64,000 nucleotides of DNA from Bilabrum cf. latius (GCA_965178125.1 OZ237776.1:124001-188000); one strand, 5' to 3'; numbered from the stretch's first letter, positions 1-64,000 are shown. The notes: generated from the sequence alone by a model not told the origin. Translations and numbers: made by a program.

Positions 1-3000
1 TGTCCGGCCGTCTCCGTTCATGTCGCCCAGGGGAGATCCAGCGGAGAACAGCGTGTTGGAGCCGACGATGCCGGCCAGTGCGCCGGTCGATGGGCGAAGT
101 CTGATGAGGCTCTTCACAGCGTCCGTGGCCCCACCGCCGTTCAAGTAGAGAAAGTACGCGGCTCCATCGTTGGAGCTGTCAGTCCGAGCTCCGACGAAGA
201 GATCTTCGATTCCATCCCCATCCATGTCGCCTGCGTTGCGGACCGGTGCACCGAAGTTGCCTCCCGCGGGTATCGAGCTCGTCGCCAGCCCCTGCTGCCC
301 GTCGGCGATCGTAACCGCGCTATCAATCACTCCGAATTCGTTTAAGCGCACGATGTGAATCTTCTGCGCCCAGCTCTCCCCGATCACCAGATCCACGGGG
401 TTCCCTGCAGACCGCGGTGACAGGGCAGCGATGCTAAACCCGATGCGAGTCCCACCCGTGGGCATGCCCTCCCCTGACGCCTCGGAAACACGAAGCATAT
501 CACGCACCGTGTCGTTGCCGTTCATGAAAAGTAGCCACACGGCTCCCCGGGCGGCTCCCAGGATCTCTGTAGCGGGTGCGCCGGCAGCCACGTCGTTCTG
601 CCCGTCAAAATCCAAGTCACCCACGGTCGTGACAGAGTGGCCAAACTGGTCCCCGGCCGCGACGGTCGCGTTGGGCATGCCCCCAGCCCCGTTCCCAATG
701 ACAACAGTGTGGTTCACTGTGCCGTTGGGCAGCAGCCGCATCACAACGATCGATCCGGTCTCTGCACCGCCGAGGTTGTCTCCGAACATTCCTGCCAGGA
801 GACGAGGAAGGTGCCCGTCATCACCGTTGGGCTGGTCCATTCGCGTGGGCTCCCCGCCGAAACGCTCGTTATCGACATCGGGCGTGTGATTGAGGCCGCC
901 CTCGAGTGCGCTGATCTTCTGGTGGGCCTTCACCGTGCCGTCGGTGTTCAAGAACAGGATGGTGATTGAGCCACTAGCAGTCCTGACGTCGTCGTCTTGA
1001 ATGGAGTACACCGCCACGTCTGGCACCCCGTCACCGTCCAGATCACCGATGCTGCCCGCCCCCTCGCCGAACGAATCACCGTCAGCGATCATTCCGGATG
1101 GAAGCCCTCCCAGCCCGCTTGCGATCTTTTGCACATGGGTCACCACACCAGCAGGAGCGGGGAGGGGAGTGGGGCTGGGGCTCGCCACTGGACCGCCCAT
1201 GGTCACCACGTAGATCGCACCCGCATTGCTCCCTCCAGTGTCGTCGTGAATCGACCCGAACACGAGGTCTGGCCTCCCGTCCCCGTTCAGGTCTTCAAAT
1301 GCCCCGGCAAGGGCGAACAGGCTGCCGGTTGCAACCACCCCGGAAAGCCCGGAAGTAGCCGTTGACAGCTCCACAATGCTGCCTACAGCATCCGTCGCAG
1401 ACGCGTTGTTGAGGTGCAGGATGTACCCCTTGCCGGAGGCAGCTCCACCGGTGGAGTCCTTCCAAGCCGCCACTCCCAGATCATCCACGCCGTCGCCGTT
1501 CATGTCGCCCACGTGCACGATATAGACCCCGAACTCGGAGCCGGTCTCGATCGTCCCAGTTGGAATGCCGTTCTGGCCATCGGAAATCTCCTCGATCGAC
1601 CCGGGAATCACGCCACCGGTGGAGTTGATCCGGCAGAGAACAACCACATGATCTGCTTGCGAAGCGATGGCTACATCCACGGGATTCTCGCCGGCCGCCC
1701 GCGGTGGAATCGCTGCGATCGCGTATCCTAGCTGGTCCATGGTGGAGCTCAGTCCGGCGAATGCAGACCCCAACGCCTGGGAATGCTGGACGGCCTGCTT
1801 GACCATGTCTGTCTCTGCCATGAAAAAGATGTGAAGAGCGCCGTCGGTGCCGGCGGTAGGGGCTCCCACGGCGATGTCGTTCAGCCCGTCGCCGTCCAGA
1901 TCACCCAGATTGCCCGCAATATCGATCCCGAACCGCGATGAAGCAGGCAGGTAGGCAGCGGGCAAGCCACCTTCCCCGCTCGACAAAGCGGTGACATTCG
2001 TCACGGTGCCGTCGCTGGTGTTGAAGCGAAGCACGAAAACACGGCCTGTGTCTGAAGTAACGCCATCATCCCAGCGAAACTGCCCCACGATGAGTCGCGG
2101 CTGCTCGGGGAAGTGTCCGTTGGGCTGGTCCAGCCGAGCCAAGCCCCTGCCGAACTTGCTGCCCCCCTGCCCCGCGATCGAATCATCGATGCCTCCTCCT
2201 GTGCCCAGCCAGAACTCGTCATACGAGTCGACGGTGCCGTCGGTGTTCATGTAAAGAAGAACGAAGGAACCTTCGGCTGCAATACCCTTGTTTCGTTCCT
2301 GGATCTGCACCGCCACGTCCTCGATACCGTCCTCGTTCATGTCGCCGACCACGGATAGCCCGTGGCCGAAGTTGTCGCCCACAGCGAGGAACGAGGCCCC
2401 GAGCCCGTTCGTGCCCTGTGCGATTTTCGTCGCACTCACGACGGCGCCCGCAGCAGCGGGAGACGGGCTAGGACTGGGGCTGGGGCTGGGGCTGGGACTG
2501 GGGCTGGGGCTACTGCTTGGCGTGGGGCTAATGCTTGGTGTAGGACTGGGACTTGGCACAGAGCCACCCATGAATGCGACGAACAGTGCACCCCTGTCTA
2601 CTCCGCTAGTGTCGTCTTGGCTGGCTGCGAATACCAAGTCAATTCGGCCGTCTCCGTCCAAATCGCCGATGGCATCACCGGCAGAGAAGAAGGTGCCGCT
2701 CACGGCGATTCCGCTGAATGCGCCGGTGGAGATTCCAATCCTGATTATTGATTTTACAGCATCCACCTCTGAGCCTGCGTTGAGGAAGATGATGTACGTC
2801 TCATCGTTTAATCTGCCCCCCGCAAACACGTCTTCGATTCCATCCCCGTCCATGTCACCAGCATTGCGGACCGTGTACCCAAGCTGCGCTGGTGCATCGA
2901 TTGCGGTGGCACCCAGCCCCTCCTGCCCGTTTGCGATGGTTTCGGGAGTTCCGATCACTCCCGACCCGTTGATGCGCACGATGTGAAGGGCGTCGGCCGG

Positions 3001-5100
3001 AAGCTCAGCAATGACTAGATCCACGGGGTTGCCAGCGGACCGAGGACTGATGGCCGTGAGTGAAAACCCCAGGGAGGTTGTCGCTGTGGGCAAGCCCTCC
3101 CCCACCGCAGACGAAATCCGGTACAAGTCGTGGATTGTGTCGTTGGCATTCATGAAGAGCACGAACACGGCACCGGTGTTAGCCGTTCCAGCATCAGCAG
3201 ACGGTGCAGCTGCAGCCACGTCGTTCAATCCATCGCCGTCTACATCTCCCAGTCCAGCAGAGATCGCGTGGCCGAAGAAATCACCTGAGCCCATGGTAGA
3301 GACGGGCATGCCACCCACACCGTTCGCAATCTCCTGCTGATGCGCCACTGTCCCATTCGGCAGCATGCGAAGAACAATCACAGCGCCCGAGTCGGTGGCA
3401 CCCGTGTCGCCCTTGTACATCCCAACCACGATCCTTGGCATGTGTCCGTTATCCCCGTTTGGCTGATTCAGACGGACAGGATCAGCACCGAATCGCTGGC
3501 CCGGCACGGCAGGAGAGAAAGAAAGCCCGCCCTCGAGTGCGCTGATCTTCTAATGGGCCTTCACCGTGCCGTTCCGGTGCAGGAACATTATAATAATGGA
3601 ACCGCTATCCACCTCGACGTCGTCATCTTTAGTCACAAAGACTGCAAGGTCCACCACACCGTCACCGTCCAGATCACCGATAGAGGACAGCGATTCCCCC
3701 ATTGAGTCTCCATCGCTCAGTGCGCTGTCTAATAGACCGCCCATCCCACTTGCGATCTTTTGCACACGAATGGGTACACCTGCAGGCGCGGGGAGGGGAG
3801 TGGGGCTAGGGCTCGCCACTGGCCCACCCATGGTCACCACGTAGATCGCACCCGCATTGCTCCCTCCGGTGTCGTCGTGAATCGACCCGAATACGAGGTC
3901 TGGCCTCCCGTCCCCGTTCAGGTCTTCAAATGCCCCGGCAAGGGCGAACAGGCTGCCGGTTGCAACCACCCCGGAAAGCCCGGAAGTAGCCGTTGACAGC
4001 TCCACAACGCTGCCGACAGCATCCGTCGCAGACGCGTTGTTGAGGTGAAGGATGTACCCCTTGCCGGAGGCAGCTCCACCGGTGGAGTCCTTCCAAGCCG
4101 CCACTCCCAGATCATCCACGCCGTCGCCGTTCATGTCGCCCACGTGCACCAGGTAGACCCCGAACTCGGAGCCGGTCTCGATCGTCCCAGATGGAATGCC
4201 GTTCTGGCCATCGGAAATCTCCTCGATCGACCCGGGAATCACGCCACCGGTGGAGTTGATCCGGCAGAGAACAACCACATGATCTGCTTGCGAAGCGATG
4301 GCTACATCCACGGGATTCTCGCCGGCCGCCCGCGGTGGAATCGCTGCGATCGCGTATCCAAGCTGGTCCATGGTGGAGCTCAGTCCGGCGAATGCAGACC
4401 CCGACGCCTGGGAATGCTGGACGGCCTGCTTGACCATGTCTGTCTCTGCCATGAGAAAGATGTGAAGAGCGCCGTCGGTGCCGGCGGTAGGGGCTCCCAC
4501 AGCGATGTCGTTCAGCCCGTCGCCGTCCAGATCTCCCAGATTGCCCGCAATATCGATCCCGAACCGCGATGAAGCAGGCAGGTAGGCAGCGGGCAAGCCA
4601 CCTTCCCCGCTCGATAGAGCGGTGACATTCGTCACGGTGCCGTCGCTGGTGTTGAAGCGAAGCACGAAAACTCGGCCTGTGTCGGAAGTAACGCCATCGT
4701 TCCAGCGGAACTGCCCCACGATGAGTCGCGGCTGCTCGGGGAAGTGTCCGTTGGGCTGGTCCAGCCGAGCTAGCCCCCTGCCGAACTTGCTGCCCCCCTG
4801 CCCCGCGATCGAATCGTCGATGCCTCCTCCTGTGCCCAGCCAGTACTCGTCATACGAGTCGACGGTGCCGTCGGTGTTCATGTAAAGAAGAACGAAGGAA
4901 CCTTCGGCTGCAATAGCCTTGCTTCGTTCCTGGATCTGCACCGCCACGTCCTCGATGCCGTCCTCGTTCATGTCGCCGACCACGGATAGCCCGTGGCCGA
5001 AGTTGTCGCCCACAGCGAGGAACGAGGCCCCGAGCCCGTTCGTGCCCTGTGCGATTTTCGTTGCACTCACGACGGCGCCCGCAGCGGCGGGAGACGGGCT
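1..5100. repeat. Intragenic tandem duplication with 2631-bp (877-codon) period; ~1160-2469 nearly identical to ~3791-5100, the rest more diverged
   Basis: ggtcaccacgtagatcgcaccc at 1201 and 3832; ctcgagtgcgctgatcttct at 901 and 3532; both offsets are 2631. Confidence 0.92.
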
Positions 5101-5193
5101 TGGCGCCGGCGACTGCCCGCGGCATAGTGGCAGCAGCAGCGCCAACAAAAGAGCATATGCAAGAAGCGGCATGATTCGTTGTTGTAGTTGCAT
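1..5193 (-). CDS. FG-GAP / integrin-alpha beta-propeller repeat surface protein with signal peptide; 3' end runs off the window; one in-frame TAG at 3550-3552
   Basis: N-terminal hydrophobic signal (MPLLAYALLLALLLPLCRG), many GDxNGDGxxDxAV Ca-binding motifs, Pro/Ser linkers. The frame appears open from 3549 to 1 after the TAG (spot-checked; no terminated ORF is listed in this frame) and ends ...LGDMNGDGRT at the window edge. Confidence 0.9.
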
Positions 5194-6344: not shown

Positions 6345-6917
6345 TTAGATCCAGCCGAAGGCCCCATAACCCGCAGCCAACAGCCATGCACCAGCCGCTC
6401 CAAGCACCCCACAGAAACCCAGAATCGGTCCGCTTGCCATGCCTGTCAATGCGAGCTCTACAGCCTGAATCGCTGCACCGCTCACAGCAATCCGCCAGCC
6501 GACGCAACACAATTGATGAGACTCGGGAGTCCCCGTATAGGCCCACCTGACGAGCATCTCGCAGTTGTGATTTACCACGCTATAGTGCTGTGCGGCCTTG
6601 CCTTTCTCGGTCCTGCCATGCATTTCCTTCCGGACCCGTCGAACGGCTTCCTCGGGGGAGTAGGCCTAGTTCTAGTTCGCTATGACGCGCACTTCGAGCT
6701 CCCGCTGGCTGTGAGCCCTGTACTGGCCCAAGCTCTCCTCAATTATGATTCCGTTACGCTGGAGGCTGAGTACGGTATTCGATTCAGCGTCGTATATGCC
6801 CCAGTGGTCCATCACCAAGATGCAGCCAAAGTTGAACGAGTAAACCAAGGCGCTCCCATGGGCCGGTGGTGCTTCATTGCCGGCGCTGCGTTGCTGTCGG
6901 GCGACGTTGTTTCCCAT
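6345..6917 (-). CDS. LRAT/PLAAT (HRASLS-like, permuted NlpC/P60) acyltransferase/phospholipase, 190 aa with TAG read-through
   Basis: HWGIYD His box, PEEAVRRV, YSVVNHNCEMLVRWAYTG (NCEHF-like catalytic Cys), C-terminal hydrophobic segment. Two in-frame TAGs (6672, 6666) lie between the His and Cys motifs; ends TAA. Confidence 0.85.
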
Positions 6918-9900
6918 TACAGAATCGATTCTCGCAGTAATTCCTATTGGTTCAAGTTGAAAGAGTTGTGCATCGTCTGCCTTTCTCCAGTGGCTGGGCC
7001 GGCAGCTCCGAATGAATGCTCAAGAACGGGCGCATTTCCCCGTAATGAGTAACCCCAAAAAACGTCAAGGCGTCGAACGTCCCTCAACATAATCAATTGC
7101 CAACTTCTGAACCGTACGCATCATGGAATAACAAGACAGTATACTGGGCCGAGAACTGGCGAGGAGTAAACAAGCAGCAAACTCATAGTAGCCACCATAG
7201 TTGAAGTTTATGCTGCATTTTGGAGGCACCTGGCACACAATATTATTTTTCACGAACTGTGGAAGGATATAGGGCAATCAACGCGGATTGTGTTTGAACT
7301 AAGGCCTAGTAGCCATGTATTCCATCCTGTACGAATAGTGTACAGGTCCAGAAGGTTAATAGCGTTGTCCCGTGACCACAAATGTATTTCTGCAAATGAA
7401 GTTAGAGACACAGTGCCAAGTAGATCGGTAGATGTACTACACAAGCGTCATATGCTGGTCGGCGCCGCGCCCAGGCAGCGGCGACGGGAGAGGGTTCCGG
7501 ATTTTTTACAGCCACTTTTCTCGGCTCCCACTGAATGCATTCTTTCGAGAGTATGCCAATACCATTGAATTGATTATTGAATTCGATTGGTCCGCTGGAT
7601 CCGAGGTCATGGATCCGGCAAGTAGCTCTACTGGCCCGTCCGACAAGGTGAGGCGCTGCTCGCCTGGCACTCAATCGCGATTTTCTCGAGATTTAGGCAA
7701 TATCTCAAAAACCGCCATTTTTATGTCAGACAGAGTTGTACATTATATCATATTTTGGGGTTATTTATGTCGGATCTTGAAAAATGGATGGTGCATCGGG
7801 TGGTACGTGTAGCACTCCCGAGCGAGCTTTCTGGCAGAGCCGAAATCAGTACCTGGGCAGCTTTCGCATTGTTTTCTCTATGTTTTGCGTAGAATTGTAT
7901 GAATTGAATCGGAATATACAGCGTTTCGCGCAATTTTTGTCTTCCTTGAGTGTATATGGGCGCTGTGCTGATTGTAGCAGCCGAATGAGGGTCTCCTCAT
8001 GGGGTCTTGGCGTGCCCACGATCCAATTGCACACTTTCTCCGTCCGTGTACTGCAACATCGTACGGATTTTTTCCGTTTGATAGATTTTGAGCGAAATTC
8101 AAGATGGCGTATTTTTGCAAATGGGCTTCAAAGATGGTGGTGCGCTTGACAGATTTTGGTTGATATGATCGATAAATATGCATATTTGGCGACGTTGATG
8201 GCGCTATCTTTAAAGTATTTGTAGATTACGTGCTACGGCTCTGTTCCAATGAGTTTCGCAGACGTAATCCACCTCGATCAAGGCAAGAGATCGAGTAGGC
8301 CAACCGGACAGGTCCTTAGGTTTAGACGGTCAGCCTCTAAAACTGGATTCACGGACGTAGCAACGCTAGTATAAGCTGAAGGAGGAGGCAATTGTCTAGC
8401 AGCAGCAAAATTACCTTGAGGAGGCTCGATGCGCAGTCGCATACGCATGCGCATTGTCTCTGGCGGCCGCTGCACTGGCGGACGTGCGCGGCAAGAGGCC
8501 TACCTCTGCATACCTTCGTGTCCTGTAAGTCTGTATCACTAGCTGGACACCTAAAAATGTGGCATTGGCGCTTGCAGGAGTTCATCTATAGCTTGGTGGC
8601 ATATCTGCGGCAGCCTCTGCATGTGCGACCGTGGCTACTTCATCGCTCGTTCTGCAGCTATGCGACACATCCAAGGAAAGTATGAGGCATCTAAATGATG
8701 CAGTGAGAACTAGAAAGCAGCTGTTGAGCTGTGGCACCGCGCGGTCGGCTCCGGGACCTGGACCACCGGGCCGGGTGGCAGGGGATCCAGGGCGACCTGA
8801 GGTGCTCGTGCTGCGCCCGTGGCGAGGCAGAATGCGAGGTGAGGCGACCGGCGGCCCAGCGTCTGCGCCGAGCAATGGCAACGGTATGCTCACTTTCTGG
8901 CGGAGAGCCTCGCCCAACCAGCGGCGAAGGTCGCTCGATCCAGGGTTGCGCGGCCCTGCTCGGTGGGGTCGTTGGTGCAGCGTTGGCATGCAGTGCTGTG
9001 GATCCTGGCCAACCGAGAGAGACGGTTCGCTAGTGGGGTGCCAGAGCCTAAGAATGCTGCCCGAGACGTTTTTTTGCTGATCGAGTACAGAGAGAAGCGG
9101 GAGAGCATCAGATCCTGGACCTGGCCTCGCAGTTGTTCCGGTTTGGCTGGAGCAGACTTGCTGGAGGCTGTCGTAGAGAACGCTGGATGGAGCTGTCCCT
9201 GGAGCCGTTTCTATTTGTCGTCGCTGACAAGAAGGCATAGGGGTGGAAGGGCGTGAACAAGGGTAAGACCAAAAGCGGGGGCAAAGGGCGGGCTGCAGAC
9301 ATTGAAGAAGCAGCGCTGGGCGGGGGGGAGGAGCAGGCGAGCCAAGCGCGGTCTCGAGCATCACGGCAGGGAGTAAACGCAAACGGTTGCGGTCAGGCAT
9401 GCACAAGAAAGGGGTTGAACGCTACGGCAGCGATGGCGAAGACGACCTGAAGGACCAGGAAGACGAGCTGGGGGACCAGGAAGCGCAGGACGCAGCCGAG
9501 CAGGCACAGGAGCAGGGATTGCAGATAGCAACGGCGACAACGCGGTCCGGGAGGGTAGTCTTGAGGTTTCTTCTTCAGCCGTCACGGGGTTCTACGGGCT
9601 GACATGCGCTCGAAGGGGGCGTTTTGGTTCGGCTCGAACGAAGCCCAGCCGCGCCAGGCATACCACTTCGTGGACCCGGCGCGGTTCCGGCGGTTCGGCA
9701 CGAGATCAATTTAACGCATACCGGTACAATGGATGTAAATGAAATCCAAATACACATTTGCGGGCTCAATTTTGCGCAGTAACTCCTATGAGCCCTGTAA
9801 TCAGGGGATGTATGTCCCGGACAGGGCAGTGCGATATTGCCTTTGGCAAGGCCTGGCACGACGCTAACCAAAAACGTTTTCCAGATAATATCACAGTCGA

Positions 9901-10332
9901 TGGCTACTTGGATTTGAGTGCGATTCTAGGCGTTTTGATCAAAAACCCTCTTTGTGTACGTCTGTAGCCGCACCCAAGCAACAGGGAGTACTGACCCTTC
10001 ATGGTATCACTGGTGCGCATCACGATGTCTAACAGGATTTTCCACAGCCAACATCACACGATACTATCATATTAAATCATTTAATAGGACTAATTATCAC
10101 GTTGTACCAAAATTACCCAAGATAATGGGCGGTTCCAGATTTGGCCAAAGCCCCGAAATAGTTGCGTGCACTTAAATCGGTCCCGTCGCCGCTGCCTGGG
10201 CGCGGCGCCGACCATGCATGTCCTTTTTTTTAATGGGATTCGGAATAGCATCGAAGCGGTCATTCAGTCCCGCTTGACGCAGTACGAGGCAAGTCATTAG
10301 GTTAATCGTTGAGATAAAACTCACGTGATATA

Positions 10333-11955
10333 ATGCAGCAGTTTGTCTCGCAAACTCGACATTCATTGTGCTGGCTTCATCTATATTCGCCGGCTTAGAG
10401 ATTCGCCGGCAGGCTCCGAGCATTTCGTGCACTTGGCACGTGTTCGACAAAAAGAATACGAAGACAGGGTAATTTATTGAAATTAAATGGCCCTCTGGGC
10501 GCAGCTATTGGCAGAAACCCATTGCGGAAACCACGATATTGTCGTACCTGCTACGATAGCGGACTGCCACGATGTTGCTGCGGCACTGCGACAAGCACCG
10601 CACCTGGACAACATATAAGAGCATTGCGCTGGAATATCAATGAGATGCCCGAATGCAAGGATGTCACGGTAGTCGCCGACCATCCGTCCTGCGGTGGATT
10701 CTTGGCCGCCAGCAGGCAGCTGCCCGAGGGAACGCTCGTTGCATGGTACGGCGTGGGCCCAGGCACTGCCCAATCGGACCTAGAAGGATAGCAGGAGACA
10801 GTTGCAATGGATTATCCCCAGGCTGCGATTGGACCGGTTCCGACGGGCTCTCAGCTTGTGATGAATGGCGCTGGCGTTGGCGCTGGCCTAGTAGGTGCTG
10901 GGGAAGGGGTGGGCATTAGCATCGGCAGAGGCCCCCGATTCCATGCCGATGCAAGAGGGTCAGGCAGTCCGACAGGTGCAGGTGCAGATGCAGATGCAGG
11001 TGCGGGTGCAGGTGCAGGTGCAGGTGCAGATGCAGGTGCAGGTGCAGATTCAGGTGGCGCTGCTGCTGTGCTCTCCCGCGCCGTACTGTGGGGCGCCACC
11101 GTGCAGCCTGAGGATGAAGATGACGATGAAAACGGTGGTAGGCGCTCGTCCAGCCGAGACCAAATCGAGCAGCAGATTCTGGACCACCCCACCATGCACA
11201 CGGTGCAGCTGGACGGGACCCGACACGCGCTGAGCGAAGGTTCGGCGAGGTTCGCTCCGCACTGCTGCGAACCGACATGCTGCCTCGTCCCAGTTGTTGA
11301 TGCCTCGGCACCAGCAGCAGCCGCTCAGAAACCCCGCGGCCCGGCCGGATTCGTCGCACAAACCGAGCCGCAGGACGTCATCCCCGATGGTGTGGCGAGA
11401 ATAGCGCCCGAGGACGTGATAGGGTTCGCACTCGTCACACTGCGTCCGGTGCCTGCCGGCCAGGCTCTCTCCTTCGACTACAGGACGAGCGAGTGGAGCA
11501 TGTCTGACGCCTTTGTTCCGGTCTGCCCCCCGGCGGTCGCGGTGGTAGGGGGCGGGGACTGGGACGTGGTGGGGGCATAGGCGGAGGCAGTGGTGGGGGG
11601 TAGGGGTGAGGGGGAAACAGAGCAGGAGGCGATTCGAGAGGAGCATGGGTCACAAGCAAGGGTGACTTGTGGTCCTATGGGTGCATTGCATGGTGACGTG
11701 GCGGGCTAGACTCTGGGCGGCGGCGCGGGGCAAGTCATCGATCAGGAGAGTGTTGGGCAATTCGAGATGCGGGAGGGTTGCGCATGCAGGGCGGGCTGCA
11801 GGCGAATCGACGGGGCGGCGTCGCTTGTTCGCTCGTCGCTTCCGCTTCCTGCTGGGTCCACCCCGTTCGTCCGACATATGGCAGCCGTTCAGCGAGGTAG
11901 TGGGTCTGATGCTACCGCTGATGTTGCTGCAGAGGACCGCGCTTTCCGCGGATGA
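10333..11955 (+). CDS. SET-domain protein with post-SET cysteines and low-complexity insertions; start uncertain (10333 or 10645)
   Basis: GGFLAASRQLPEGTLVAWY (SET-N), ARFAPHCCEPTC (NHSC-like), RPVPAGQALSFDYRTSEWSM (ELxFDY-like), GCACRAGC (post-SET). All in one frame across TAGs at 10789, 11578 and 11707; ends TGA. Confidence 0.78.
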
Positions 11956-16300: not shown

Positions 16301-16426
16301 AATGCAGCTTCGGTGGGATAACGTGTGGCATGACAGTGAATATTGCAAACGAAGGGAGCAGCAAAACCCATTAATGATCCGCGCTCCCGGCCTCGTGCCT
16401 CCTTTGAAGCGTCTCAAGGCCCGCAT
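13326..16426 (-). CDS. Crinkler/RHS-type P-loop NTPase plus restriction-endonuclease-fold protein with N-terminal coiled coil; apparent 1-nt frameshift near 15109
   Basis: Walker A LVVAQSSGSGKTKL, Walker B VLVTIDEA, LEGRPEFL motif, C-terminal DAGMDL...VIGVLAK (PD-(D/E)xK-like). Six in-frame TAGs (16211, 16205, 16202, 15428, 14694, 13662); ends TGA. Confidence 0.7.
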
Positions 16427-48711: not shown

Positions 48712-50107
48712 ATGGGACAGTGCAGTGAGACAATCCTTTATACAGCCACCTCAAGAGCATGCGTCCATGTGTGCCTCTTGGAGTTTCCAATTATGGTCAG
48801 TTTTGCCGATATGGATTCCAACCGTACTAGAGGTCCTGAGATCACACATTGCCTGGATACGTATCCGGAACATGTGTCAAGTTGCTAGTTTTCGCTTTTA
48901 ATTGATGTTCCCAACTTGTTTGGTTACAACTTTTGGTCTATGAACACGGTGGCGGTACTTTCGTTTCGCAGTAGCTGCCGGAGGAGCGTCGGAGAAATAG
49001 TGCTCGGCCGTGCGGGAGATGGACGTCTCCTAGTCGCATGAATTTGACGATAGCGATCAGGAAGTGTGCCGTGGAATATGCGGCACGCTCTACCAAGTCC
49101 CATCTGAGAAAATAGCTGTCTCGGACGGACATGCGCACAGGCTTTATGATGCGGACTGGCCCGGTGGCTCTGCTGGCGGTTGCATCGAGTACCTTCCAGC
49201 AAGTTCACCTGTAGTCGCTGCCAGTGGAACAGCCAGGGCTGGAAACCAATCAACATCGCCAGATAACGGAAATGAGCACTTCGCAACGTCTCGATGGGCC
49301 GATCACGGCAGCCGCTGGCGCAGCGATGCTGGCCAGGCATCTGCGGCTGCGGACGGGCGAGCACTGTCACGCGGGAAGCACGCCACCGAGGAGACGACAA
49401 AGTCGGGAAGCCAGGCCAAGGTGCGATGCCCCACCATGAACAACTGCAAGCTATACATTACCAGAAGCAGCACAAGTGGAAGCGCCCAAGGCCGCAGCCT
49501 CCAGCCCATCGAATCGAGCCAACTTGAAGAGCAATCTTCTGCAAGTGCTTCTAGGCCCGAGGGCCGGCAGAGGGCAGGGTCCTGTCACTAGGCCTCCGGA
49601 TGCAGCTCTACTGGGCTCGATGGGATTTCACTCGAACTCGGTGACCTTCCCACGCCCGCGCTGGTGCATCGCAAGGAGGTACATCCGGGAGAGAGCGGCG
49701 TTGCTGGTAGCGCGGCAGGAGGGGCGGGAGGGCTGCAACTTGCACTTGCGGCCCACGGGCTTGGGAACGGAGCCTGCCCGAAGCTGAACATGCCCGCGAT
49801 AAACGATGAGATCTTGCTAGTGACTGGCAGCGGCGCCTCTCGCCGCGCAGGCATCAGTGGGCTAGAAGTAGTAGATCCAGTGGGTGACTGTGCTGCTGAG
49901 CAACCCTCTCACTGTACCAGACCAGCACTGGGCCGCAGCAGGCAAGCCGGTACTTCGCCCGGAACTGGGTGTGCATCAACGCTCGCCGCATCGAATAAAT
50001 GGAGAGGCGTGAAGCAACGGATCAATTCGATCGCAGGCGCCACCATTGTCCCGGGCGGTGTCTTGCCGGGTGGCAGCACTGCTGGATGGCGGTCTTTCTC
50101 GCAGTGA
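48712..50107 (+). CDS. Low-complexity protein with MGQC micro-exon; predicted intron 48725-48971
   Basis: GTGAGA donor and TTTCGCAG acceptor join in phase 1; TAGs at 48998, 49031 and 49589; ends TGA. Confidence 0.6.
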
Positions 50108-52878: not shown

Positions 52879-54493
52879 TCACCGCAGGCTATCCGCTGCC
52901 ACTGCGGTTCCAGGAACCGCTGGCTGCGCAGCTGCAGGGTCACACCCCCCTGACGATACCGAGTTCCCTTTCATCATAGACATGGACGAGCGCAGTCTGG
53001 CAGTCCACCGCTGAAGCGAACCACCTCCCTGTGTTGATCCACCGGCGTAGGCCGCACCCCTTCCCCTCCCCCCCCTGTCCACAACCGTTCGCGAGCCGGT
53101 TCCGCGGATCGGGCTGCCACTGGCAGCTGCTGCAGCCTGCAGGGAGCCGAGCGGCCGCAGCGGCAGCAGCTCCCCTGAGTGACCCCGAGAGTGATCATCA
53201 TCTGGGCCGCTTACGGATTGCCAACGGGGTCGCCTTGCCGTCGTCGATGGTTGGGTTGCTGCTGTCGATGAGTCGCCTTGGACCCTCCCACTCGTCACAC
53301 CATAGAAGGTTCGCACTGTCGCATCGAGCTGACTAGGGGTGCCAAAGTTGCTCCGCAGCAGTCCCGGTATCGACGCTTCGGATACTGATTGTACTGCCTA
53401 TCGCATCCCAACCCGTCTTTGAGGCGCTGTGTACAGCCGCGGCGGGCAGTCGCGGGGTGTATCATCGGCAGTAGGCAGGTGATCGTGTCTCCCTGGCTGC
53501 CTCGAATACCCCCTGGCCATGTGGCGGTCGCTTTCACTGCGAAACGATGATTCCCCGGTGTTGAACGAGGTGGCACTGCCTCGTTTAACACGCCCTGACG
53601 AGTGCAGAGGATCGGCCACGAGCTGGTCAGAAGCATCGCAAATTCGGCCCCCATAACTACCTGTGCTAGCCTTGCCGGCAGTACCAGCGGACCCGTGTTG
53701 CGGCGCATGTGATGCAGGCTACGATTCTAGGCAAGCATCGTGTCCCCGATTGCATCTCCCCGACGCCTGTGTCGCAGTCTGATCATGTTTCGAAGCAAAC
53801 TTTGGTAAGTGGCTGGCAGAGCCCTGGTGAGCCAGGCTTGTATCGCACCCTGAAATTGACTGCACGATGTGATGCGTTGCTTGACTAGTATTCCTGGCCT
53901 GTAGCTGGGAATCAATTATACCCTCCGCACCCTACGTGCCACTTCTGTTGCTGGCAGGTCCGCATTGATGTACTTCCACGCGAGAAGGGATGTGAGCACC
54001 AGACTCAACCAATCTGGCAGATGCTATTGTATCTGAAAATAACACGGATCCCTCGCCGAAGGGCTAGGTTCCATGTGCAGAGCCTGATGCTTCTGTCTGA
54101 TAGGGGTACGTCTGCGAGCTGGAGATGCCGACGCAACACGATTCATAGATGACAATGAGTTTGACCGCACGAAATATTTCGTCAGTTTAAGCCTCACGGT
54201 TGTGTACTGTACCGTTGATCCTGGTTCAATGCTTTCCTGGAACAGCTATGAAGCTAGCAGTGATCCACCGCATGCTGCTGCGGTAGTGTCTGTGCACTAG
54301 CACACATGAGGTACAAATAAGAATCAAGCACACTTGAATCATTGACGAGATTAACATCATTCATGCAGCCGCATAGAAACATAGTGGTGCGTCGGATGGA
54401 AGCAGAGCACTCACTGCCGGCTGGGTGTTTCAGCTGGAAGTCCACCAGCTCTCTGCTTTCTTCAATACCGACGGAGCTGCTTACACAACCCAT
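52879..54493 (-). CDS. Low-complexity protein with MGCVSS motif; intron(s) around 54110-54414 unresolved
   Basis: First exon followed by GTGAGT; frame open 54186-52879 across TAGs at 54064, 53932, 53719 and 53398; ends TGA. Confidence 0.52.
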
Positions 54494-54825: not shown

Positions 54826-56223
54826 TCAATGAATTGACTCCAACGGGTCAAGAGACCACTCTTCTGCGCTTGCGTATCCGTGCACGATCTACCCCCCTAC
54901 GTCGCTTGCGCCAGTGCCATCACTTTCACCATCTCGCTCCAATGGCACTGCTTCTCCCCCAAGGGACCTCGAAGAAGCACCGAGTGACCTGGTGCTCCAT
55001 GGCTTGGCCGGCCTTAAGTAAACACGCCTTATCGACCTTGCTCGCTCGCCTTGCTTTGGCTCTGCCCCCGCAGCAAGGCATCGGCCGGTGCAGCCGGGCA
55101 GACTAGGAGGATATGTGGCTGGGCTTGGCACCGGCACACCCTGCGACAGGGCTGGGCTTGGCACCGGCACACCCTGCGACAGCTAGTGGTGCTCTACACC
55201 GGTAGATGCGGCGGTGTCCCATGCATGGTCGCGCTCAGCAACGGCTGAACCGCTCTCAGCTGCGGCCATGGCACCCACCTGCTGCTCCACCTCCTATCCG
55301 CTGCCTAGCTGCTCCCGTGTGCGGGTAGTGGCCAAGCCATGCGTGCTGCCTACACCAAACGAAGAGCTGCTATGTTCCTACAAACTGATATTACTTCGCT
55401 CGTCACACCTGCTACGCGCGCCGGGATGGCCGCCATCGTGCGACCGCGTGCATGAGTGCTACTCGTGGCTAGCATGCGACCAAGAGCGGCGACCACCCCT
55501 CGCGTCTGGCTGAGCCATCGCCCCCGTGCCGTCAGTGGAAATACCAGACGTAACCTGCAATTGTTCAAGCTTTGTAGCCAATGATCTAGGTACAACGGTC
55601 TCGCGATGATTCACCCCCCGCGGCGTTGCAACGTACTTGCGGGCAGCAGCACGTGGTGTCAACGGTCTCGCGATACCCGGTTCTAATCGTCGCGTGCCGG
55701 GCAACCCGCTGATTGCACCTAAACTGGGCAAATAGTCAGTGTGGTGGAATGCAGGGTCCAGATTTGGGACTTTGACCTGATTGGCGACGCATTCCTGCGC
55801 GCATCTTGACGAGCGCTTGGTAATTTTCTTCTGTGCCCAGTTTCCTCGAACTGATATGTTGGACCAACTTCGAATTCCAGAGCGCTTAACATACTATCAA
55901 ACATAGCATCCGTCTCACACTGATCTTCTGGTGCCCACCGCTGCAGGAATTTCCACAGCTTAAGCGCTACTAGGAACACTTGCCTGGATCGACCTCTGCA
56001 ACAATAACGCATGAATGAAAGAGACATCTTCGTTGGACAACATCCTTAAATACAACTGTGCGTGTGCATGATCTCTCAACTGTATGTATGCCTTACGTTT
56101 CCTTGATATTCCCACACGATCACAGGTGCATGTGCCTCGATGCGGTGATACGCGAACCTCTGTGTTGGAATGCGCTGCAGCTACTGCATGAACGGCAGGC
56201 ATACTACTTGTCCCGCAGCCCAT
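54826..56223 (-). CDS. Low-complexity protein with MGCGTS motif; intron(s) around 55894-56096
   Basis: GTAAGG donor after the first exon; frame open 55893-54826 across TAGs at 55459, 55378, 55294, 55183 and 54889; ends TGA. Contains a 33-bp duplication at ~55117-55182. Confidence 0.52.
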
Positions 56224-56520
56224 GATAGATTCCTCTTTAACTTTGAATGCTCTTTGGTTTCGTCTCTCTTCGTTTCACGGCAGTGTTTCGACTGTTCGTA
56301 TGTCTGAAAACCGGAATTGTAACGGCGTTACGTTGCGCAATGTTTCATGCATAATCTCGTTACAGTTCGACTTACAAAAATGGTGCCAGCAGTGTCAGCA
56401 TACCACTGGCGCGGTACACTGTACCTTTGAGTTACAGTGGACAGTCAGCGACCGATTCAACCAAGATGAACATTCCTTGCAATGATTACCCCCCTACATG
56501 TGCAGAACCTCAATATAATT

Positions 56521-57519
56521 TGGCAGCCCGAGGACAGCCTCTGGCTCGGCACAGGGCCCATCCAATGGCAGCCCGAGGACAGCCTCTGGCTCGGCACAGG
56601 GCCCATCCACTGGCAGCCCGAGGACAGCCTCTGGCTCGGCACAGGGCCCATCCACTGGCAGCCCGAGGCCAGGCACTGGCTCGGCCCGGGGCCCATCCAC
56701 TGGCAGCCCGAGGCCAGCCTCTGGCTCGGCACAGGGCCCATCCACTGGCAGCCCGAGGACAGCCTCTGGCTCGGCCCGGGGCCCATCCACTGGCAGCCGG
56801 AGGACAGGCTCTGGCTCGGCACAGGACCTGCAGTGGCAGCTCGAGGACAGGCTCTGGCTCGGCACAGGGCCCATCCACTGGCAGCCCGAGGACTGGCTCT
56901 GGCTCGGCACAGGGCTCATCCACTGGCAGCCCGAGGACTGGCTCTGGCTCGGCACAGGGCCCATCCACTGGCAGCCGGAGGACAGGCTCTGGCTCGGCCC
57001 GGGGCCCATCCACTGGCAGCCCGAGGACAGGCTCTGGCTCGGCACAGGGCCCATCCACTGGCAGCCCGAGGACAGGCTCTGGCTCGGCACAGGGCCATCC
57101 ACTGGCAGCCCGAGGACAGCCTCTGGCTCGGCACAGGGCCATCCACTGGCAGCCCGAGGACTGGCTCTGGCTCGGCACAGGGCCCATCCACTGGCAGCCC
57201 GAGGACAGGCTCTGGCTCGGCACAGGGCCCATCCACTGGCAGCCCGAGGACAGGCTCTGGCTCGGCACAGGACCTGCACTGGCAGCCCGAGGACAGGCTC
57301 TGGCTCGGCACAGGGCCCATCCACTGGCAGCCCGAGGACAGGCTCTGGCTCGGCCCGGGGCCCATCCACTGGCAGCCCGAGGACAGGCTCTGGCTCGGCA
57401 CAGGACCTGCACTGGCAGCCCGAGGCCAGCCTCTGGCTCGGCACAGGGCCCATCCACTGGCAGCCCGAGGACAGGCTCTGGCTCGGCCCTGGGCCCATCC
57501 ACTGGCAGCCCGAGGACAG
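56521..57519. repeat. Minisatellite of ~22 copies of a 45-bp unit (43/44-bp variants), TGGCAGCCCGAGGACAG(C/G)CTCTGGCTCGGCACAGGGCCCATCCAC
   Basis: Head-to-tail units with no unique spacers; indel variants shift reading frames. Confidence 0.95.
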
Positions 57520-58637
57520 TATGTGGTCCATTTTAATATTCATTGAGTACCACTACATACTACCAACCACACGCGTCAAACAATGCCGTAAGCAGCGCTT
57601 TGCCGCGGTAGTTTGCGCTCCTAGACGAGCTTGAATTACGGCGGCACGGTTTGTCGCTATTCCAGATGGTGCGGAGTAGGCCAGGTGCTAGCCAGATTTA
57701 GCACACTCGGTCACCACTAGAATTGGCTCCGCTGCCCTGCTCCAGCGTGGACTCTTTGTCCTGAATGCAGCTGAACGACCGCAAATGGCAGGCTACACGA
57801 CTGATAACTGGCGCCCACAGGGATGCACTGGCAGATAGGGGCGGGAACCTAGCCGAAAATCTAAATAGTACCATCTACAGGACGCAGGCACGTGTGGGAT
57901 AACCTCCGCAATGCATTCGTCGGGCCAAGTTAAGCTCCACGAGTGCTCTGCAGCGATCGGCAGACGCTATCATAAGCGAATTGGCCAGGTGCCAGCTGTG
58001 CGATTGGTGTCACTATTACACTGTACTAAGGCATGTGACCTCTACACTGTACAGTCGCAGAGGGTTTCATGTTTGCGAGAAGGTCGACTGGGCACGAGGT
58101 CCAAGTGGGGCGCTGCCTCTGGTTTGTCGGATCTCAGGGAATGTGCTCCCCTATAACATCCAAAGTGCGGCTCGGGCCTTTCAGAAGATATCAAATATTC
58201 GAATCAGATAGCCCCTCGCTACTCTACATTCGCTGAGGGTTCTCTGGTGTGGGGGCTGCTGCCAAAATGGTTGAAGTGCCGAACCGGCGCAGTAATGCCG
58301 ATGCCATTTAGTTGCACTGGCGAAAACAAAATTCACACTGGCGGGATCCGCGAAACAGAATAGGGCGTATCTTAAGTTCTTCGTCTTAACGTGCCCAAGA
58401 AATTTGTGATGTCACAAACAAATCAGCTGGCATCTCTATCCGTGCAGGGGGTGACGCACGAACCATTAACTGAAGATGAAAACAATACTAAGAATCCAGA
58501 ACCAAGCCAGAACCAGTGCAGCAGGCAGCATTTCTCAGACTAGACACGATTGTGAAGGCTAGTACTGCGCTGCCCAAGCATCCATTTGTATACAATTAGC
58601 TAGTTGGTGGAGCAAATTCGGCGGATAGGGGAATCCA

Positions 58638-60908
58638 ATGGATTCGTATCGAGCTGAAGGCGATCAGCAGCAACATGGCAGCATTGGTCCGAAAAAGCGC
58701 AAAGATGCAACTGGTGCGGTAGCTAGTGCCTTCAATCCAGATAAAGCAAGTTGGAAAGAAGTCTTATAGCTGTCAGAACAGTTGAAGGATAACCTTGCGC
58801 ACGCAGACAGACGGCAAAGCGAACTTACCGACGGTGAAATAGAATCGGCTGCACGGCGACTGCGGGAGGCCAGGCGAGCAATTAAAGGACTCTAGCTGGC
58901 TATTGATGCTCAGCTATATGGCGATCATAGCAAAGAGAACGTGCAATGGCGCATCGCGCGGACGGTACCACCAGATGCCACTGATGGTGGAAGCGCACAC
59001 GGTTCTCGGTTCTCGATTGCACATAAAGCCGACGCGTCGGAGATTAGTAGATCTGCGAACTCACAAGTACCAGCTAGTGCATCCTCGAGTCACGAGGGGA
59101 ACATGCAGCCCAGACCGATTGAAATTGGCCGCCGCGGCCATTGCCGACCGGCATTAACTCCGACTCAAAAGACGTCCACTGGAAAGGGAGCCATGCTGCT
59201 AAAGGTTCCGGAACCAGGCCCAGGCTCTACGTCCGGTGCTTCTGGTTCTTCAAAGACATCCGACACGCTGAGTGCGTCTTTAGTTGGTTCGAGTTCACAG
59301 TACGGTGGGACGCTGAGCAGTCGATCCGGCATTTCAGCGGGTGCTGTGGCCGAGATGAGAGCGCAAGGGGATGCAAGTGCCGACGGGACGTCCGAGTCGT
59401 CCGAGCGCCGCAGCGGGCATTCCAGTCACCGGCCAACCAGCTCGAAGGGCAGCTTTGATGATAGTCGGAAGCACGACAATCGATCCAGTGCGGCTTTGCG
59501 GCAGTCGGGAGCTGTTGAAGCAGCATCCGAAATGCCCACACACAGCGGGGCCACCAGAGCCCGCAAGAGAGAGCGCGGGCGGCGCACTGACCATACCGAT
59601 GCCGCGGACCTCGCGGGATCAGCGACTGCCTCGGATTCGCCTGCCAGGTCCCCTGGGCAGCATAGCCAAGGCGGGCGCGACATGAGCTCGCGAAGCAGCG
59701 GGAGCATTCGGCGGAGCGGCGGCAGCAGCCGCGGGAGCGCCAGCCAAACCGGAAGTGGGCGGGGGAACACGCCTTCACTGGCGGCTGATGACGGCTCCGT
59801 GGACCGGGCGGAAGGTGAAGGGAACGAGGAGGGCGGGAGGCATGACACGGGAAGCAGCCGATCGGCAGACTCCAGCCGCGCACTGCCGAGTGTGACGAGT
59901 GCTGGACGCTCCGGGGGTGGAGCAGGTGGAGCAGGAGGAGGAGGGCAGAGGAGGAGAAGAACCAGGACCAGGACCAGGCAGCACCGCAAGAGAAGGCGAC
60001 ACGACAGCGTGATTCGCGAGCTGCAGCCGGGCCAACCGGGTGCATCGCACGGTGGAGGATATCTGCGAACCAGCAGCAGGTGGTCCGGAGACGAAAGGTC
60101 AGGTGCGTTGCACGGTAGTGCAGGTGTCAGGGTCTCGGGTGCAGTCTGGAGCGAACAGCAGGGCCTGATGGTCGGTTTGCCAGAAAACACCTCCCGGGAC
60201 AGCAGCGACCCATTGGCTCGATTCACCGGACTGCCACACCGGGCAAGGGTACAGGAGCAGGATCGCTCGAACTCGATTGGCAGCATCGCACCATCACGTG
60301 CCACCGGCTATCTGCCCTCGGGTACCTCGCTCATTTTGATTCCGGATGGTCAAGGCGCAGCACCCCCTGGAGTACCTCAGCGGGGAATGTGGAGCGGACC
60401 CATCCTGACGATTGGCACTGGAAACGGAAACGCCTCGGGCTCGGGCTCGGGCTCGCAGCTGCAGGCAGGTCTGGGAATAGGAGCAGCAGGTGCGGCGGGG
60501 ACACTGAGCAGCTGCGACGATGGCGCTCTCACCCCCATGTCCCAGCCCCAGTAGCAGCCTGTGTGCCCCGGGGAAACCGGAACTGCAGGGCATGGTGGCA
60601 TAAGTAACCATTCCTTCGTACTGCAACGGCCAAGGGAACGAGGCAGCGAGTCCAGCTCGAGCAGCGACAACACGCTGGTAAGGGAGGCGAGAGCAGCGGC
60701 AGCGCAGGAAGCACATGGCGCCGGGCTCAGCCCATCGAGGGACCTAGCATTCGCTGGCAGTGGAGTGTGCCTGCATCCGAGGCACGTGGATGACGCTGCA
60801 GATGCTCAGGGTTGGTGCGAGGATGGTGCACAGGGGATCGGGCAAGCCGCTGCGCCCATGTCTTCAGGAGGATTGGGCGGCTAGGGCGCACCGGACCAGC
60901 TGCACTGA
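58638..60908 (+). CDS. Hypothetical protein with N-terminal helical/coiled-coil segment and Ser/Gly-rich disordered body; true start may be upstream (e.g. 58476)
   Basis: One frame across TAGs at 58767, 58893, 60552 (CAG TAG CAG) and 60882; ends TGA. Confidence 0.65.
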
Positions 60909-61124: not shown

Positions 61125-63407
61125 TCACACGCACTCGTCACACTCAAACACAGTGCTAGTTTTCGGCGTAGCCCTCGCCCTCGCCTACGTCGAGCCCCTT
61201 GCCCCTGCCCCTGCCCCTGCCCCTGCCCCTGCCCCTGCCCCTGCCCCTGCCCCTGCCCCTGCCCCTGCCCCTGCCCCTGCCCCTGCCCCTGCCCCTGCCC
61301 CTGCCCCTGCCTCTGCCTCTGCCCCTGCCACAAACTTGACGCCACCGCGGCCCCTTGCTTCCAAGCTCATGTGCCAGCCCACTCGCATTGCAAGCGCAGA
61401 TTCCTGACTGCGGGTCAGTTGAGCCTTCGCATGACGAGTCCAACTCGGAGCCCGATGCAAGCCTCTGCCAGCGCCACTGCCAGTGCCACTGGACTCTCCC
61501 CAGGCAGCCCCGACCCCGCTGTGCTGGACCTGGCCAGCACTGCTCGCGTCCCTGCCTTCCCGCGATTCCACGTAGCTCAACGCTCGCTCGAGCAGCCACT
61601 GGCTAGTGCTGCTCACGAGGTGCGCGGCGCAGGTTCCGCTCGTGCCGAATGTGTAGGCCTCTCCTTCCGTGCCCATCGTGCCACTCTCGGGCGCGAAGCT
61701 TTCCTCCGTCTCGCCTATAGTAGCACGGTGTTCAACATGTTCCCGTGCAGCTTTTTCATATTCCTGCCGCGTTGAAACGATCGATGCCATGTCATTGGCA
61801 GTGCCAGTTGCTTCGGCACCAGGATGCTCTCTGGCATACCAACTTCCTTGCGCTGCGCTGCCCCACGACTGATCATGGTCTCGAGCCATGTTTTGGACGA
61901 TTCTAGTCGTGTGAAGATGCACCTACTGCGATACAGTGGACCCCTCTGCTTCTATGTCAATTCGACTGCAAGCAGGACCGTTGATGTCATCCGGATCGAT
62001 CGGCAACACTTCTTGAGGAGCAGCACTGCCACTAAGTTTGGTGAAAGGGTAATGATGAGCCTCGTCCTACAGCAATGTTGTTGCGACTTCACCCCTCGGC
62101 AATTCAATACCACTGCTGCACTCAACTGCAAGCAGGTCGGATGACTATGGTGATTTTAGGTCTGAGAGGTCGTTGCTGGGCAACCAGACACAACCAGACT
62201 CCCCAAAACTACCTATTGCATCTGTGTGCCTGCGGCATCGCTTTGAGTGTGCCATAGATCGTTTCAAAGCAATTCTGCTGGCCGATTGCGATCTACTGCG
62301 TAGATTCGGCGCCGAGTTTGCGACTGAATCTCCGCAATCAATCGGTTCAAGGGATAACCAGCGCGACCCAGATACTGCGTTTGATTCTTGACGCGCGTTG
62401 TTATTGTCCAAGTCGTGTGGGGAATGCCGTGGAAGATCCTATCTGGCGGCTGGCAGCTGCACTTGCTTGCTCGGTTTGTCGGGGGTTTTCTCCGGCTTTG
62501 AACCATATGAAGGGATGTTTATAGCCCTACCAGTACCTAGAGCGACTTGCGGAGACGATGTAGATAAAACTCCCTACCCCTGATGTTGGGGACGGAATAC
62601 AGTGCTACTGGGTTGCAGTGTCTCGCACCATTGTTGACTTGAACCCTCTCGGGTCCCGCCTCCAAAAATGACGTGGTTTCCAATGGTATAATCTCGCACT
62701 GCCCAGTTGGAGTGGTCCGACGTAGCAGAGAGCACAACATCGCTAGCGACTCCTCCTCGATGATTTACTTGTTTCTCACTGGCAGGGCAGTCACTCGACG
62801 CAGTTCCATGTCTACTCCCATTATTGGATTGTTGGCTACTATGTACCACGCAATAGACACGACGAACTGCGGTGTCGCCAATGAATTCGATTACAAATGA
62901 AGATAGTGCAGATCCGGACAGCATACGTGTCCATTCAATTACATGGTTTCCAGTCGAAAGCATGCCCTTGCCGCCATTAAGAAACTTAAAACGAGACCGT
63001 GTTGTAGTAACTGACTATGCACCTTTCTAAAGCGGCCACATGAACAGGCAAGATAGCTGTCGTCGCGCCAACCGCACTAACAGTTAGCCAGGCGATTGCG
63101 CACTAGCGGGCAACTGCCGGCAATGACAAGATTCCAGTGACTAGTTTGCGAAATTGACCTTCCAGTGCTTTCAAATCCCAACACAATTCTTACTTTTTGG
63201 CCGATTGCAGCTTGATCTCCATGACGATCGGCGCCAGGGCCGGCTACTCGGCAGTATTCCGCCACCCGCGTCGCTACCCTTCGGCAGTGATGCCTCAGTG
63301 TCGGCTTCTGCAGCGTGATGCGCATGCACCCGTGCAGCAGATCGAAACGATGCATTGCGTTTATCATGCTCCCCGTCACCAGACTGCTGGCCTAGGCAAT
63401 TTCCCAT
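61125..63407 (-). CDS. Low-complexity protein with MGNCLG motif; intron starting at 63193
   Basis: First exon followed by GTAAGA; frame open ~62963-61125 across TAGs at 62574, 62439, 62145, 62067, 61923 and 61185; ends TGA. Confidence 0.6.
61194..61329. repeat. (GCCCCT)n hexamer microsatellite, ~22 units, encoding Ala-Gly on the minus strand; same unit also at ~35378-35419 (inverted) and ~35718-35770
   Basis: Directly visible. Confidence 0.92.
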
Positions 63408-63720
63408 TGTATGAGCCCTGTTTGTAAGGCTTGCCGCCACAGGGGTGTCTGGGTGCCACGCAGTGCGGAACTGGTGAGGCGCCGCGACACAGATCTAAGG
63501 CAGGAGGTGCGTACCGGACCATGCCAATGTGCTCGTTGGCTCGCAGAGACCGTATGAAATCATTTTTATTTCGCCGCCAATCAGCCTGCATGCACGCGTG
63601 ACTTAACTCGCGTCTTGCCGGCGCCAAGGATAACCACTGCTCGATGGCAACCACCGTCGATCCTGGCAACCACGCACACAGTTCACCGTAGACTTCACCG
63701 CACGGCGTAGAATGGAACAA

Positions 63721-64000
63721 TCACTGCTGGTCGCCAACACCCCCGTCGATTTTTACTAGCACGTCAGCACGCACCCCGATGGCGCAAGCATCCACACCCC
63801 TGCCCCCCTCCCCTTCCTCATCTGCATCTTCTCCAGAGTCCTCGATTTCATCTCCAACCGTGGCACCACCACCACCACCACCATCATCATTCTCGCCACT
63901 ACTGCTGCTGCATACTCCCCGCACGCTGCCCTCTCCTTTGCTCTTCGTAGCCACAGTACCGTTCTCTAAGGCTGGGTGCTCTGATTCCATGATCTCCTCC
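63721..64000 (-). CDS. 3' end of a gene entering from beyond the window (acidic/Gly-rich)
   Basis: Open frame with composition like neighbouring genes; ends TGA. Confidence 0.45.
   Translation of the reverse strand, partial: EEIMESEHPALENGTVATKSKGEGSVRGVCSSSSGENDDGGGGGGATVGDEIEDSGEDADEEGEGGRGVDACAIGVRADVLVKIDGGVGDQQ

Follow-up and report, generated by a model that had tools for sequence, protein, structure and literature searches.

A GC-rich stretch of DNA from Bilabrum cf. latius in which UAG is very probably read as glutamine

How is the triplet UAG read in a genome whose long reading frames are interrupted by TAG, yet by neither TAA nor TGA? A 64,000-nt stretch of one strand from Bilabrum cf. 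latius (GCA_965178125.1 OZ237776.1:124001-188000) raises this question. We refer to the whole stretch as the window and count positions from its first letter. An earlier note, made by a model from the sequence, had proposed that UAG is a sense codon here, probably for glutamine (Gln, Q), while UAA and UGA remain stops. The window has a G+C content of 59% (54–67% in 4-kb steps) and carries about 20 long reading frames, which are distributed over the two strands at a spacing of ~3 kb. Our analysis leads to the conclusion that the window is very probably nuclear DNA of a GC-rich, intron-poor eukaryote that reads UAG as Gln and still uses UAA and UGA as stops, a code with the meaning of NCBI table 15.

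We compared the lengths of reading frames in the window with those in 30 second-order Markov replicates of it. The longest frames delimited by TAA and TGA comprise 2087, 1861, 1570, 1132, 1043 and 929 codons and contain 8, 3, 7, 5, 7 and 7 in-frame TAGs, respectively. Together with two further frames of 841 and 812 codons, eight frames free of TAA and TGA exceed 800 codons, and every one of them is longer than the longest frame of 634 codons that the simulations yield when TAG is taken as sense. Under the standard code, the longest frame in the window comprises 1183 codons. Taking TAA as sense leaves this maximum unchanged at 1183 codons and lengthens no frame. Taking TGA as sense gives frames of 1183 and 927 codons, the latter within a simulated range of up to 973 codons, and the TGA-as-sense frames hold up to 26 TGAs, which identifies them as off-frames.

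We then derived 20 gene models, extending from Met to stop or from frame start to stop, with a total of 14,975 codons. In frame, these models contain 82 TAGs, no TAA and no TGA. The two off-frames of the same DNA contain a total of 221 TAG, 110 TAA and 562 TGA, corresponding to means of 110, 55 and 281 per off-frame. TAA and TGA are absent in frame because the frames were chosen that way, and therefore the frame lengths constitute the real test. TAG occurs in frame near its background frequency and accounts for 0.55% of all codons in the window and for 12.4% of Gln codons. The earlier note had counted roughly 75–80 TAGs in about 17 genes, had described them as parting fragments of the same frame that TAA and TGA never part except at introns or two frameshifts, and had named an equal frequency of in-frame TAA as an observation that would speak against its proposal. 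Our counts bear out this description, and the sequence contexts quoted in it, CAA TAG CAG, CAG TAG CAG and TAG ATC TAG TAG GTC CTG CAG, are present at 20888, at 60552 and at 16213-16204 on the minus strand, respectively.

Coding potential was scored by codon log-odds with leave-one-gene-out training, where all three stop codons were scored zero. The frame of the TAG is the best frame, with a positive score, in 57 of the 82 segments upstream and in 70 of the 82 segments downstream of a TAG; both sides satisfy this for 51 of the 82 TAGs, with ~9 expected by chance. For 81 TAGs, we examined position and context. They are spread over the whole gene length, and no conserved flank and no splice-like or editing motif was found near them. 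The strongest flanking position is a G at +4, with a frequency of 0.48 after TAG vs. 0.34 after CAA or CAG.

The TAGs are also reproduced in independent sequencing data. Contigs from four public runs, belonging to three studies, cover positions 23800-43799, and the long pieces listed show no deviating letter. Variant positions are reported only within a repeat at 36702-37038 and at 40304, and none of them is a TAG. The agreement of three studies rules out assembly error as the source of the TAGs. Pseudogenes, or C-to-T decay resembling repeat-induced point mutation, would yield TAA and TGA as well, neither of which is seen. Frame statistics, coding potential in the same frame across the TAGs and independent DNA runs support UAG as a sense codon. 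The organism was sequenced at high depth in several runs, and in one of them, with 2,977 million letters, the word depth is even at ~100. Provided that this organism makes up most of the run, a rough estimate of the genome size is a few tens of Mb, and at this depth the organism is possibly in culture.

The same pattern is found in a metagenome contig of 7.2 kb (L001, 1-7247, 55.7% G+C), whose gene for a GT61-family glycosyltransferase is 39% identical to the GT61 gene of the window in the best segment. In L001, the terminal part of a HECT E3 ligase gene, the GT61 gene and a TPR protein gene lie side by side and contain 2, 5 and 3 in-frame TAGs, respectively. All three genes end with TGA, and the stop of the HECT gene coincides with the canonical end of the domain. 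The GT61 match in L001 is one frame of 737 codons including its five TAGs, where the database protein is only 179 aa long. A HMMER search with the window GT61 protein returned 54 homologues at E ≤ 1e-3, the closest of which are P0001/P0055, P0002 and P0003/P0056. The database proteins of the closest GT61 relatives are fragments of 175–386 aa from a protein of ~740–830 aa, as expected if genes bearing TAGs are called with the standard code. P0001 (GT61) and P0070 (HECT) each come from a contig of 45,512 bases, which suggests that HECT and GT61 adjoin in a third relative as they do in L001 and that this gene order is conserved. The metagenome loci L002–L009, which are AT-rich (19–45% GC) and carry distant GT61 genes, were left out of the analysis.

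Termination in the window is dominated by TGA, which closes 16 of the 18 complete frames; the other two end with TAA, so that every complete gene ends as the earlier note had stated. The remaining two of the 20 frames have no recorded stop, one being the FG-GAP gene that leaves the window and the other the LRAT frame, which is given without its stop. TGA is also found at all C-termini that are confirmed by homologues, namely those of the window GT61, the L001 GT61 and the L001 HECT proteins. The proposal that both UAA and UGA are retained as stops stands in full for UGA, which is absent in frame and present at these confirmed C-termini. For UAA, a probable stop, the only support is that it does not occur in frame and that two orphan genes are closed by TAA.

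Which amino acid is inserted at UAG was assessed at the alignable TAG sites of the window and L001 (n = 10). Their number is small because the window carries no housekeeping genes; neither these nor rRNA genes were found in its 64 kb. At four sites, the aligned partners agree, and in 4/4 they show Gln. (i) In the FG-GAP gene, which contains an internal duplication of ~877 residues, the TAG at 3552 corresponds to a CAG at 921, and the surrounding 14-residue peptide is otherwise identical in both copies. (ii) The TAG at residue 540 of the window GT61 protein aligns with Q in each of its closest relatives (Table 1). (iii) One TAG of the L001 GT61 gene aligns with Q in 2/2 partners, the window protein and P0002. 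(iv) Residue 82 of the L001 HECT protein, a TAG, aligns with Q in 5/5 homologues, ranging from a relative with 79% identity to oomycetes at ~36%. Summed over all ten sites, BLOSUM62 scores are 19.3 for Q and 8.7 for E, with all others at 3.8 or below; S reaches 2.2, and Leu is not among the best eight. Small as it is, the sample consistently favours Gln over Ser, Leu and Glu, in line with the assignment that had been considered probable before. UAG behaves as a Gln codon in two divergent relatives, the window organism and L001.

Several observations weigh against reading UAG as Gln. The sequencing data look like DNA throughout: no run is recorded as RNA, and the contigs of the four runs are collinear with the window. 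Agreeing partners are available for only 4 of the 10 alignable sites, and the other six are variable (S/H, D/H, H/N/R, D/M, K/G/V and S/T/K). The last of these columns lies opposite the TAG at residue 388 of the L001 HECT protein, where HUWE1 and NEDD4L have Q and HECTD3 has K. Sixteen of 81 TAGs fall into the first tenth of the gene models, and some of them may belong to 5′ leaders instead of coding sequence. A few genes have their last TAG near the closing TGA, as in the frame 58470-60908, where it is codon 804 of 812, eight codons before TGA; UAG may thus occasionally terminate translation. P0070, which is 79% identical to the L001 HECT protein, extends over 1084 aa without a stop under the standard code, where ~6 TAGs would be expected at the usage of 0.55% found in the window, and this relative may make little or no use of TAG. 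Credible Pfam matches are obtained for only 3 of the 20 frames (FG-GAP, JmjC and GT61), with LRAT below threshold. The other 16 of 20 frames are orphans, many of low complexity, and one of them (56395-57969) is mainly tandem repeat. Finally, a tRNA-Gln with anticodon CUA and an altered eRF1 would be expected by analogy with other lineages that have reassigned UAG, and neither gene appeared in the scans of the window and L001: the tRNA scan found no tRNA gene in either sequence, Rfam gave no match in either, and general Pfam scans of their open reading frames (ORFs) gave no match to eRF1.

The late TAGs would agree with an ambiguous UAG, encoding Gln within genes and acting as terminator in some contexts, similar to the situation in Condylostoma and karyorelict ciliates or to UAA in Blastocrithidia. 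No homologue fixes the C-terminus of the genes in which a late TAG precedes the closing TGA or TAA, and the moderate enrichment of G at +4 is compatible with such a dual role. Wherever homologues do fix the C-terminus, however, the terminator is TGA, all complete frames close with TGA or TAA, and the TAGs are distributed along the genes. We consider ambiguity unlikely on these grounds. It is less likely again that UAG is sense for a different amino acid, Glu, Ser, Leu or Tyr, as it is in other lineages that have reassigned this codon. Two TAGs, at 25066 and 25072, lie within a poly-Glu run, and variable columns are found opposite residue 544 of the window GT61 protein (S/H) and residue 388 of the L001 HECT protein, but Gln occupies all four agreeing sites and leads the summed BLOSUM62 scores well ahead of E and S.

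A further alternative retains TAG as a stop and invokes rescue after transcription, be it through U-to-C editing, excision of very short introns or near-cognate read-through that needs no dedicated tRNA. Evidence drawn from DNA runs is compatible with such a rescue. Its probability is nevertheless very low: the 81 TAGs examined share no conserved guide sequence, a frame-preserving correction would be required at every one of ~80 sites within 64 kb, and the same pattern recurs in L001 despite an identity of only 39%. Near-cognate read-through, moreover, is normally far too inefficient for seven to eight sites per gene. That the window belongs to a large virus or mobile element on code 15, as documented in crAss-like and Lak phages, is scarcely credible given its eukaryote-like content (long low-complexity proteins, signal-peptide and membrane architectures, GT61, JmjC and FG-GAP, with HECT next to GT61 in L001), the absence of any virus-typical family among the Pfam matches, genes ~3 kb apart on both strands and an even depth of ~100.

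With UAG read as Gln, the code of the window can be compared with those already described. A nuclear reassignment of UAG alone was not known before 2017 and is still confined to few lineages, which are Iotanema, one rhizarian, Scotinosphaera and a few ciliates (PMC5304391, PMC11687900). In the fornicate metamonad Iotanema spirale, UAG is read as Gln, whereas UAA and UGA terminate translation (Panek et al. 2017, PMC5304391). The window resembles it in that UAG alone is transferred to Gln outside ciliates, for which a tRNA-Gln(CUA) and an altered N-domain of eRF1 would be expected. It differs in that Iotanema is an anaerobic metamonad known from its transcriptome with UAA as main stop, whereas the window derives from a GC-rich genome, uses TGA in 16 of 18 frames and has its nearest named homologues in stramenopiles. 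Ciliates with UAG alone as Gln are represented by NCBI table 15 (Blepharisma), Protocruzia tuzeti and some phyllopharyngeans, as summarized in McGowan et al. 2024 (PMC11687900). They share with the window the identical code table and the wide use of UAG inside genes. In contrast, the window has 59% GC, long genes and a scaffold of at least 64 kb, and nothing ciliate-like was seen in it.

In lineages where both UAA and UAG (UAR) encode Gln (NCBI table 6), which according to the overview in PMC11687900 include many ciliates, ulvophycean green algae, hexamitid diplomonads, Streblomastix and Amoeboaphelidium, Gln has likewise gained a former stop codon. UAA is also Gln there, whereas in the window TAA is found at 0 of 14,975 codons in frame vs. 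~55 per off-frame. Codes in which all stops are reassigned or ambiguous, of the Condylostoma, Blastocrithidia and Amoebophrya types, do not describe the window either, in which TAG is the sole one of the three triplets found in frame. Other eukaryotes, non-ciliates included, have also separated UAG from UAA, with UAG as Leu in the rhizarian exLh and in phyllopharyngean genomes from TARA and as Ser in Scotinosphaera (PMC5304391, PMC11687900). The residue aligned with TAG in the window and L001 is Gln, and no agreeing site shows Leu or Ser.

A mechanism can be proposed by analogy with other lineages that have reassigned UAG, as outlined in PMC5304391. A tRNA-Gln(CUA), which differs from tRNA-Gln(CUG) by a single change in the anticodon, would decode UAG and not UAA, in agreement with the property of CUA tRNAs described there. 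Efficient recognition of UAG by eRF1 would be lost through changes in its N-terminal domain, for which the T32G change of Iotanema eRF1 provides a precedent (PMC5304391). CAG-to-TAG transitions would then be synonymous and could spread through the genes, as envisaged for such lineages.

The placement of the window organism is tentative. Among named organisms, Cafeteria provides the closest homologues of GT61, at ~29% identity, and oomycetes provide those of the L001 HECT domain, which hints at a stramenopile affinity. Among the homologue clusters, the only organism names given are Cafeteria and the ascomycetes Ophiostoma and Penicilliopsis. A protein-atlas search with a TAG-free stretch of the FG-GAP protein returned bacterial FG-GAP clusters only and is uninformative on the taxon. 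It is plausible that the organism is not a ciliate and that its UAG-only code may be of independent origin. The meaning of the code is already known from NCBI table 15; a GC-rich non-ciliate lineage with UAG as Gln was not found in the literature, which was covered mostly by abstracts, and the supplements of PMC11687900 and PMC5304391 may list more taxa. There is a real chance of an unreported independent origin. In its full form, an independent and so far unreported transfer of UAG alone to Gln in a GC-rich, intron-poor protist clade, tentatively allied to stramenopiles and with at least two deeply divergent members (the window organism and its environmental relative), this proposal is a serious possibility that we would not yet favour.

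AT pressure is usually invoked for the capture of stop codons. If UAG is Gln in a genome with 59% GC and UGA as main stop, the change would have arisen without this usual pressure, and the organism would offer a tractable non-ciliate system in which to study how recognition of UAG and of UAA become uncoupled. A GC-rich case outside ciliates bears on the onset of reassignment, for which codon capture under AT pressure and an ambiguous intermediate are candidate routes, and on the question of constraints on separating UAG from UAA. Standard-code gene calling truncates the proteins of this clade, so that annotations and protein catalogues are wrong unless table 15 is used.

The features of the window are listed in Table 1. 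The FG-GAP protein has a signal-peptide-like N-terminus. In the GT61, JmjC and FG-GAP genes, TAGs fall within recognised domains or between them. The earlier note had further described TAGs as interrupting four conserved architectures, with unequal outcome on inspection. In the GT61 protein, a TAG was placed between anchor and catalytic motif; the Pfam match at residues 721-830 spans the TAG at residue 770, and at 24 bits it lies just below the cut-off of 27, with homologues confirming the family. In the JmjC protein, a signal-peptide-like start and a hydrophobic segment at the C-terminus indeed enclose all seven TAGs, as read from the translation; a homologue search of this gene region returned nothing. 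The interval from His to Cys motif of an LRAT domain is weakly supported, as the Pfam match (residues 72-165, E = 8.5e-4) spans both TAGs at 20 bits, below the cut-off of 24.3, and the ORF has no homologue in PDB. For the transition from SET to post-SET, the ORF in question has no Pfam match at E ≤ 0.01.

Both frame changes mentioned in that note are present. In the P-loop gene, the frame switches across an overlap of ~97 bases near 15020-15116, for which a short intron, a genuine frameshift or decay of the gene may be responsible; neither this ORF nor its downstream part yielded a homologue. The second frame change, at 23824-23854, lies between two long ORFs. The tandem repeat that makes up most of the frame at 56395-57969 is open in several frames on both strands, with peptide repeats of the type GCQWMGPVPSQS and AEPEAVLGLPVDGP.

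Table 1 Reading frames and aligned TAG sites of the window
Feature	Position	Strand	In-frame TAGs	Stop	Remarks
FG-GAP repeat protein gene	1-5193	-	1		Pfam FG-GAP, E = 1.5e-46; runs off the window start
TAG of FG-GAP gene	3550-3552	-			Paralogous codon in second repeat copy (919-921) is CAG
LRAT/NlpC-like ORF	6348-7019	-	6672-6674 and 6666-6668		TAGs between His and Cys motifs
ORF labelled SET in the earlier note	10318-11955	+	3–4	TGA	
P-loop (Walker A) protein, two overlapping frames	15020-16654 and 13326-15116	-	6		TAGs counted in models
Low-complexity ORF, 1132 codons	16917-20315	+	5	TGA	
ORF, 1043 codons	20723-23854	+	7	TGA	
Longest frame, 2087 codons	23824-30087	+	8	TGA	
ORF	31063-33588	+	2	TAA	TAGs counted in model
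ORF	34426-36213	+	4	TGA	TAGs counted in model
GT61-family glycosyltransferase gene, 833 codons plus stop	37430-39931	-	7	TGA (37430-37432)	
TAG at GT61 residue 540	38312-38314	-			Q in 4/4 closest relatives (L001, P0001, P0055, P0002)
ORF	41473-42573	+	3	TGA	
JmjC-domain membrane protein gene, 1453 codons plus stop	43948-48309	+	7	TGA	Pfam JmjC_2, E = 4.6e-12
TAG-bearing frame	48944-50107	+		TGA	
TAG-bearing frame	50785-52701	+		TGA	
TAG-bearing frame	52879-54186	-		TGA	
TAG-bearing frame	54826-55896	-		TGA	
TAG-bearing frame	56395-57969	-		TGA	Mostly tandem repeat, doubtful gene
TAG-bearing frame	58470-60908	+		TGA	
TAG-bearing frame	61125-63083	-		TGA	

The window also contains dispersed short motifs. 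The most over-represented 10-mer, GTGACGAGTG, usually found inside GGTGTGACGAGTG, occurs in 31 copies vs. ~0.1 expected, for example at 17937, 24358, 26323, 26353, 29557, 44935, 52321 and 59892 on the plus strand and at 53298 and 61141 on the minus strand. It has no conserved flanks, and 29 of the 31 copies lie within genes and two are intergenic. Within genes, 18 copies are in sense orientation and read V-T-S, four are in sense orientation in the second phase free of stops, the phase that yields TGA is not used by any copy, and seven are antisense. The synonymous positions are identical in all copies, which places the constraint or the origin in the nucleotide sequence. L001 lacks the motif. 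The guess that the peptide G-V-T-S derives from a CRE-like palindrome found no match, and the literature on the motif yielded primers only. A second motif, GGGTGCATCGCACGG, reads G-A-S-H-G and is present in six copies on the plus strand only (26221, 26711, 27086, 27143, 49664 and 60040). Many run contigs break or branch at 26708/26729, which suggests that it is repeated across the genome.

Longer repeats are present as well. At 32782-32973, a tandem 18-base repeat encodes (ERDEGE)n; contigs of three runs break or collapse there, and its copy number in the window may be unreliable. One record apparently skips this interval; the coincidence with the repeat makes the skip look like repeat collapse and not like splicing. 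An element of ~450 bases forms an inverted pair around the GT61 gene, at 36664-37094 (plus strand) and 40222-40683 (minus strand), with 73.5% identity, and a 95-base piece of it is found at 43622-43716, upstream of the JmjC gene. The depth of bin 36473-37139 is ~45x that of its surroundings, and the element is therefore high-copy in the genome. It carries one copy of the 12-base motif GTGTGACGAGTG, which was rejected as a tiny intron, since continuous frames would be disrupted if it were removed. Depth is also raised in bin 42476-43142, to ~10x that of the surroundings, and this bin holds a direct repeat of 105 bases with copies at 42490-42593 and 42569-42673.

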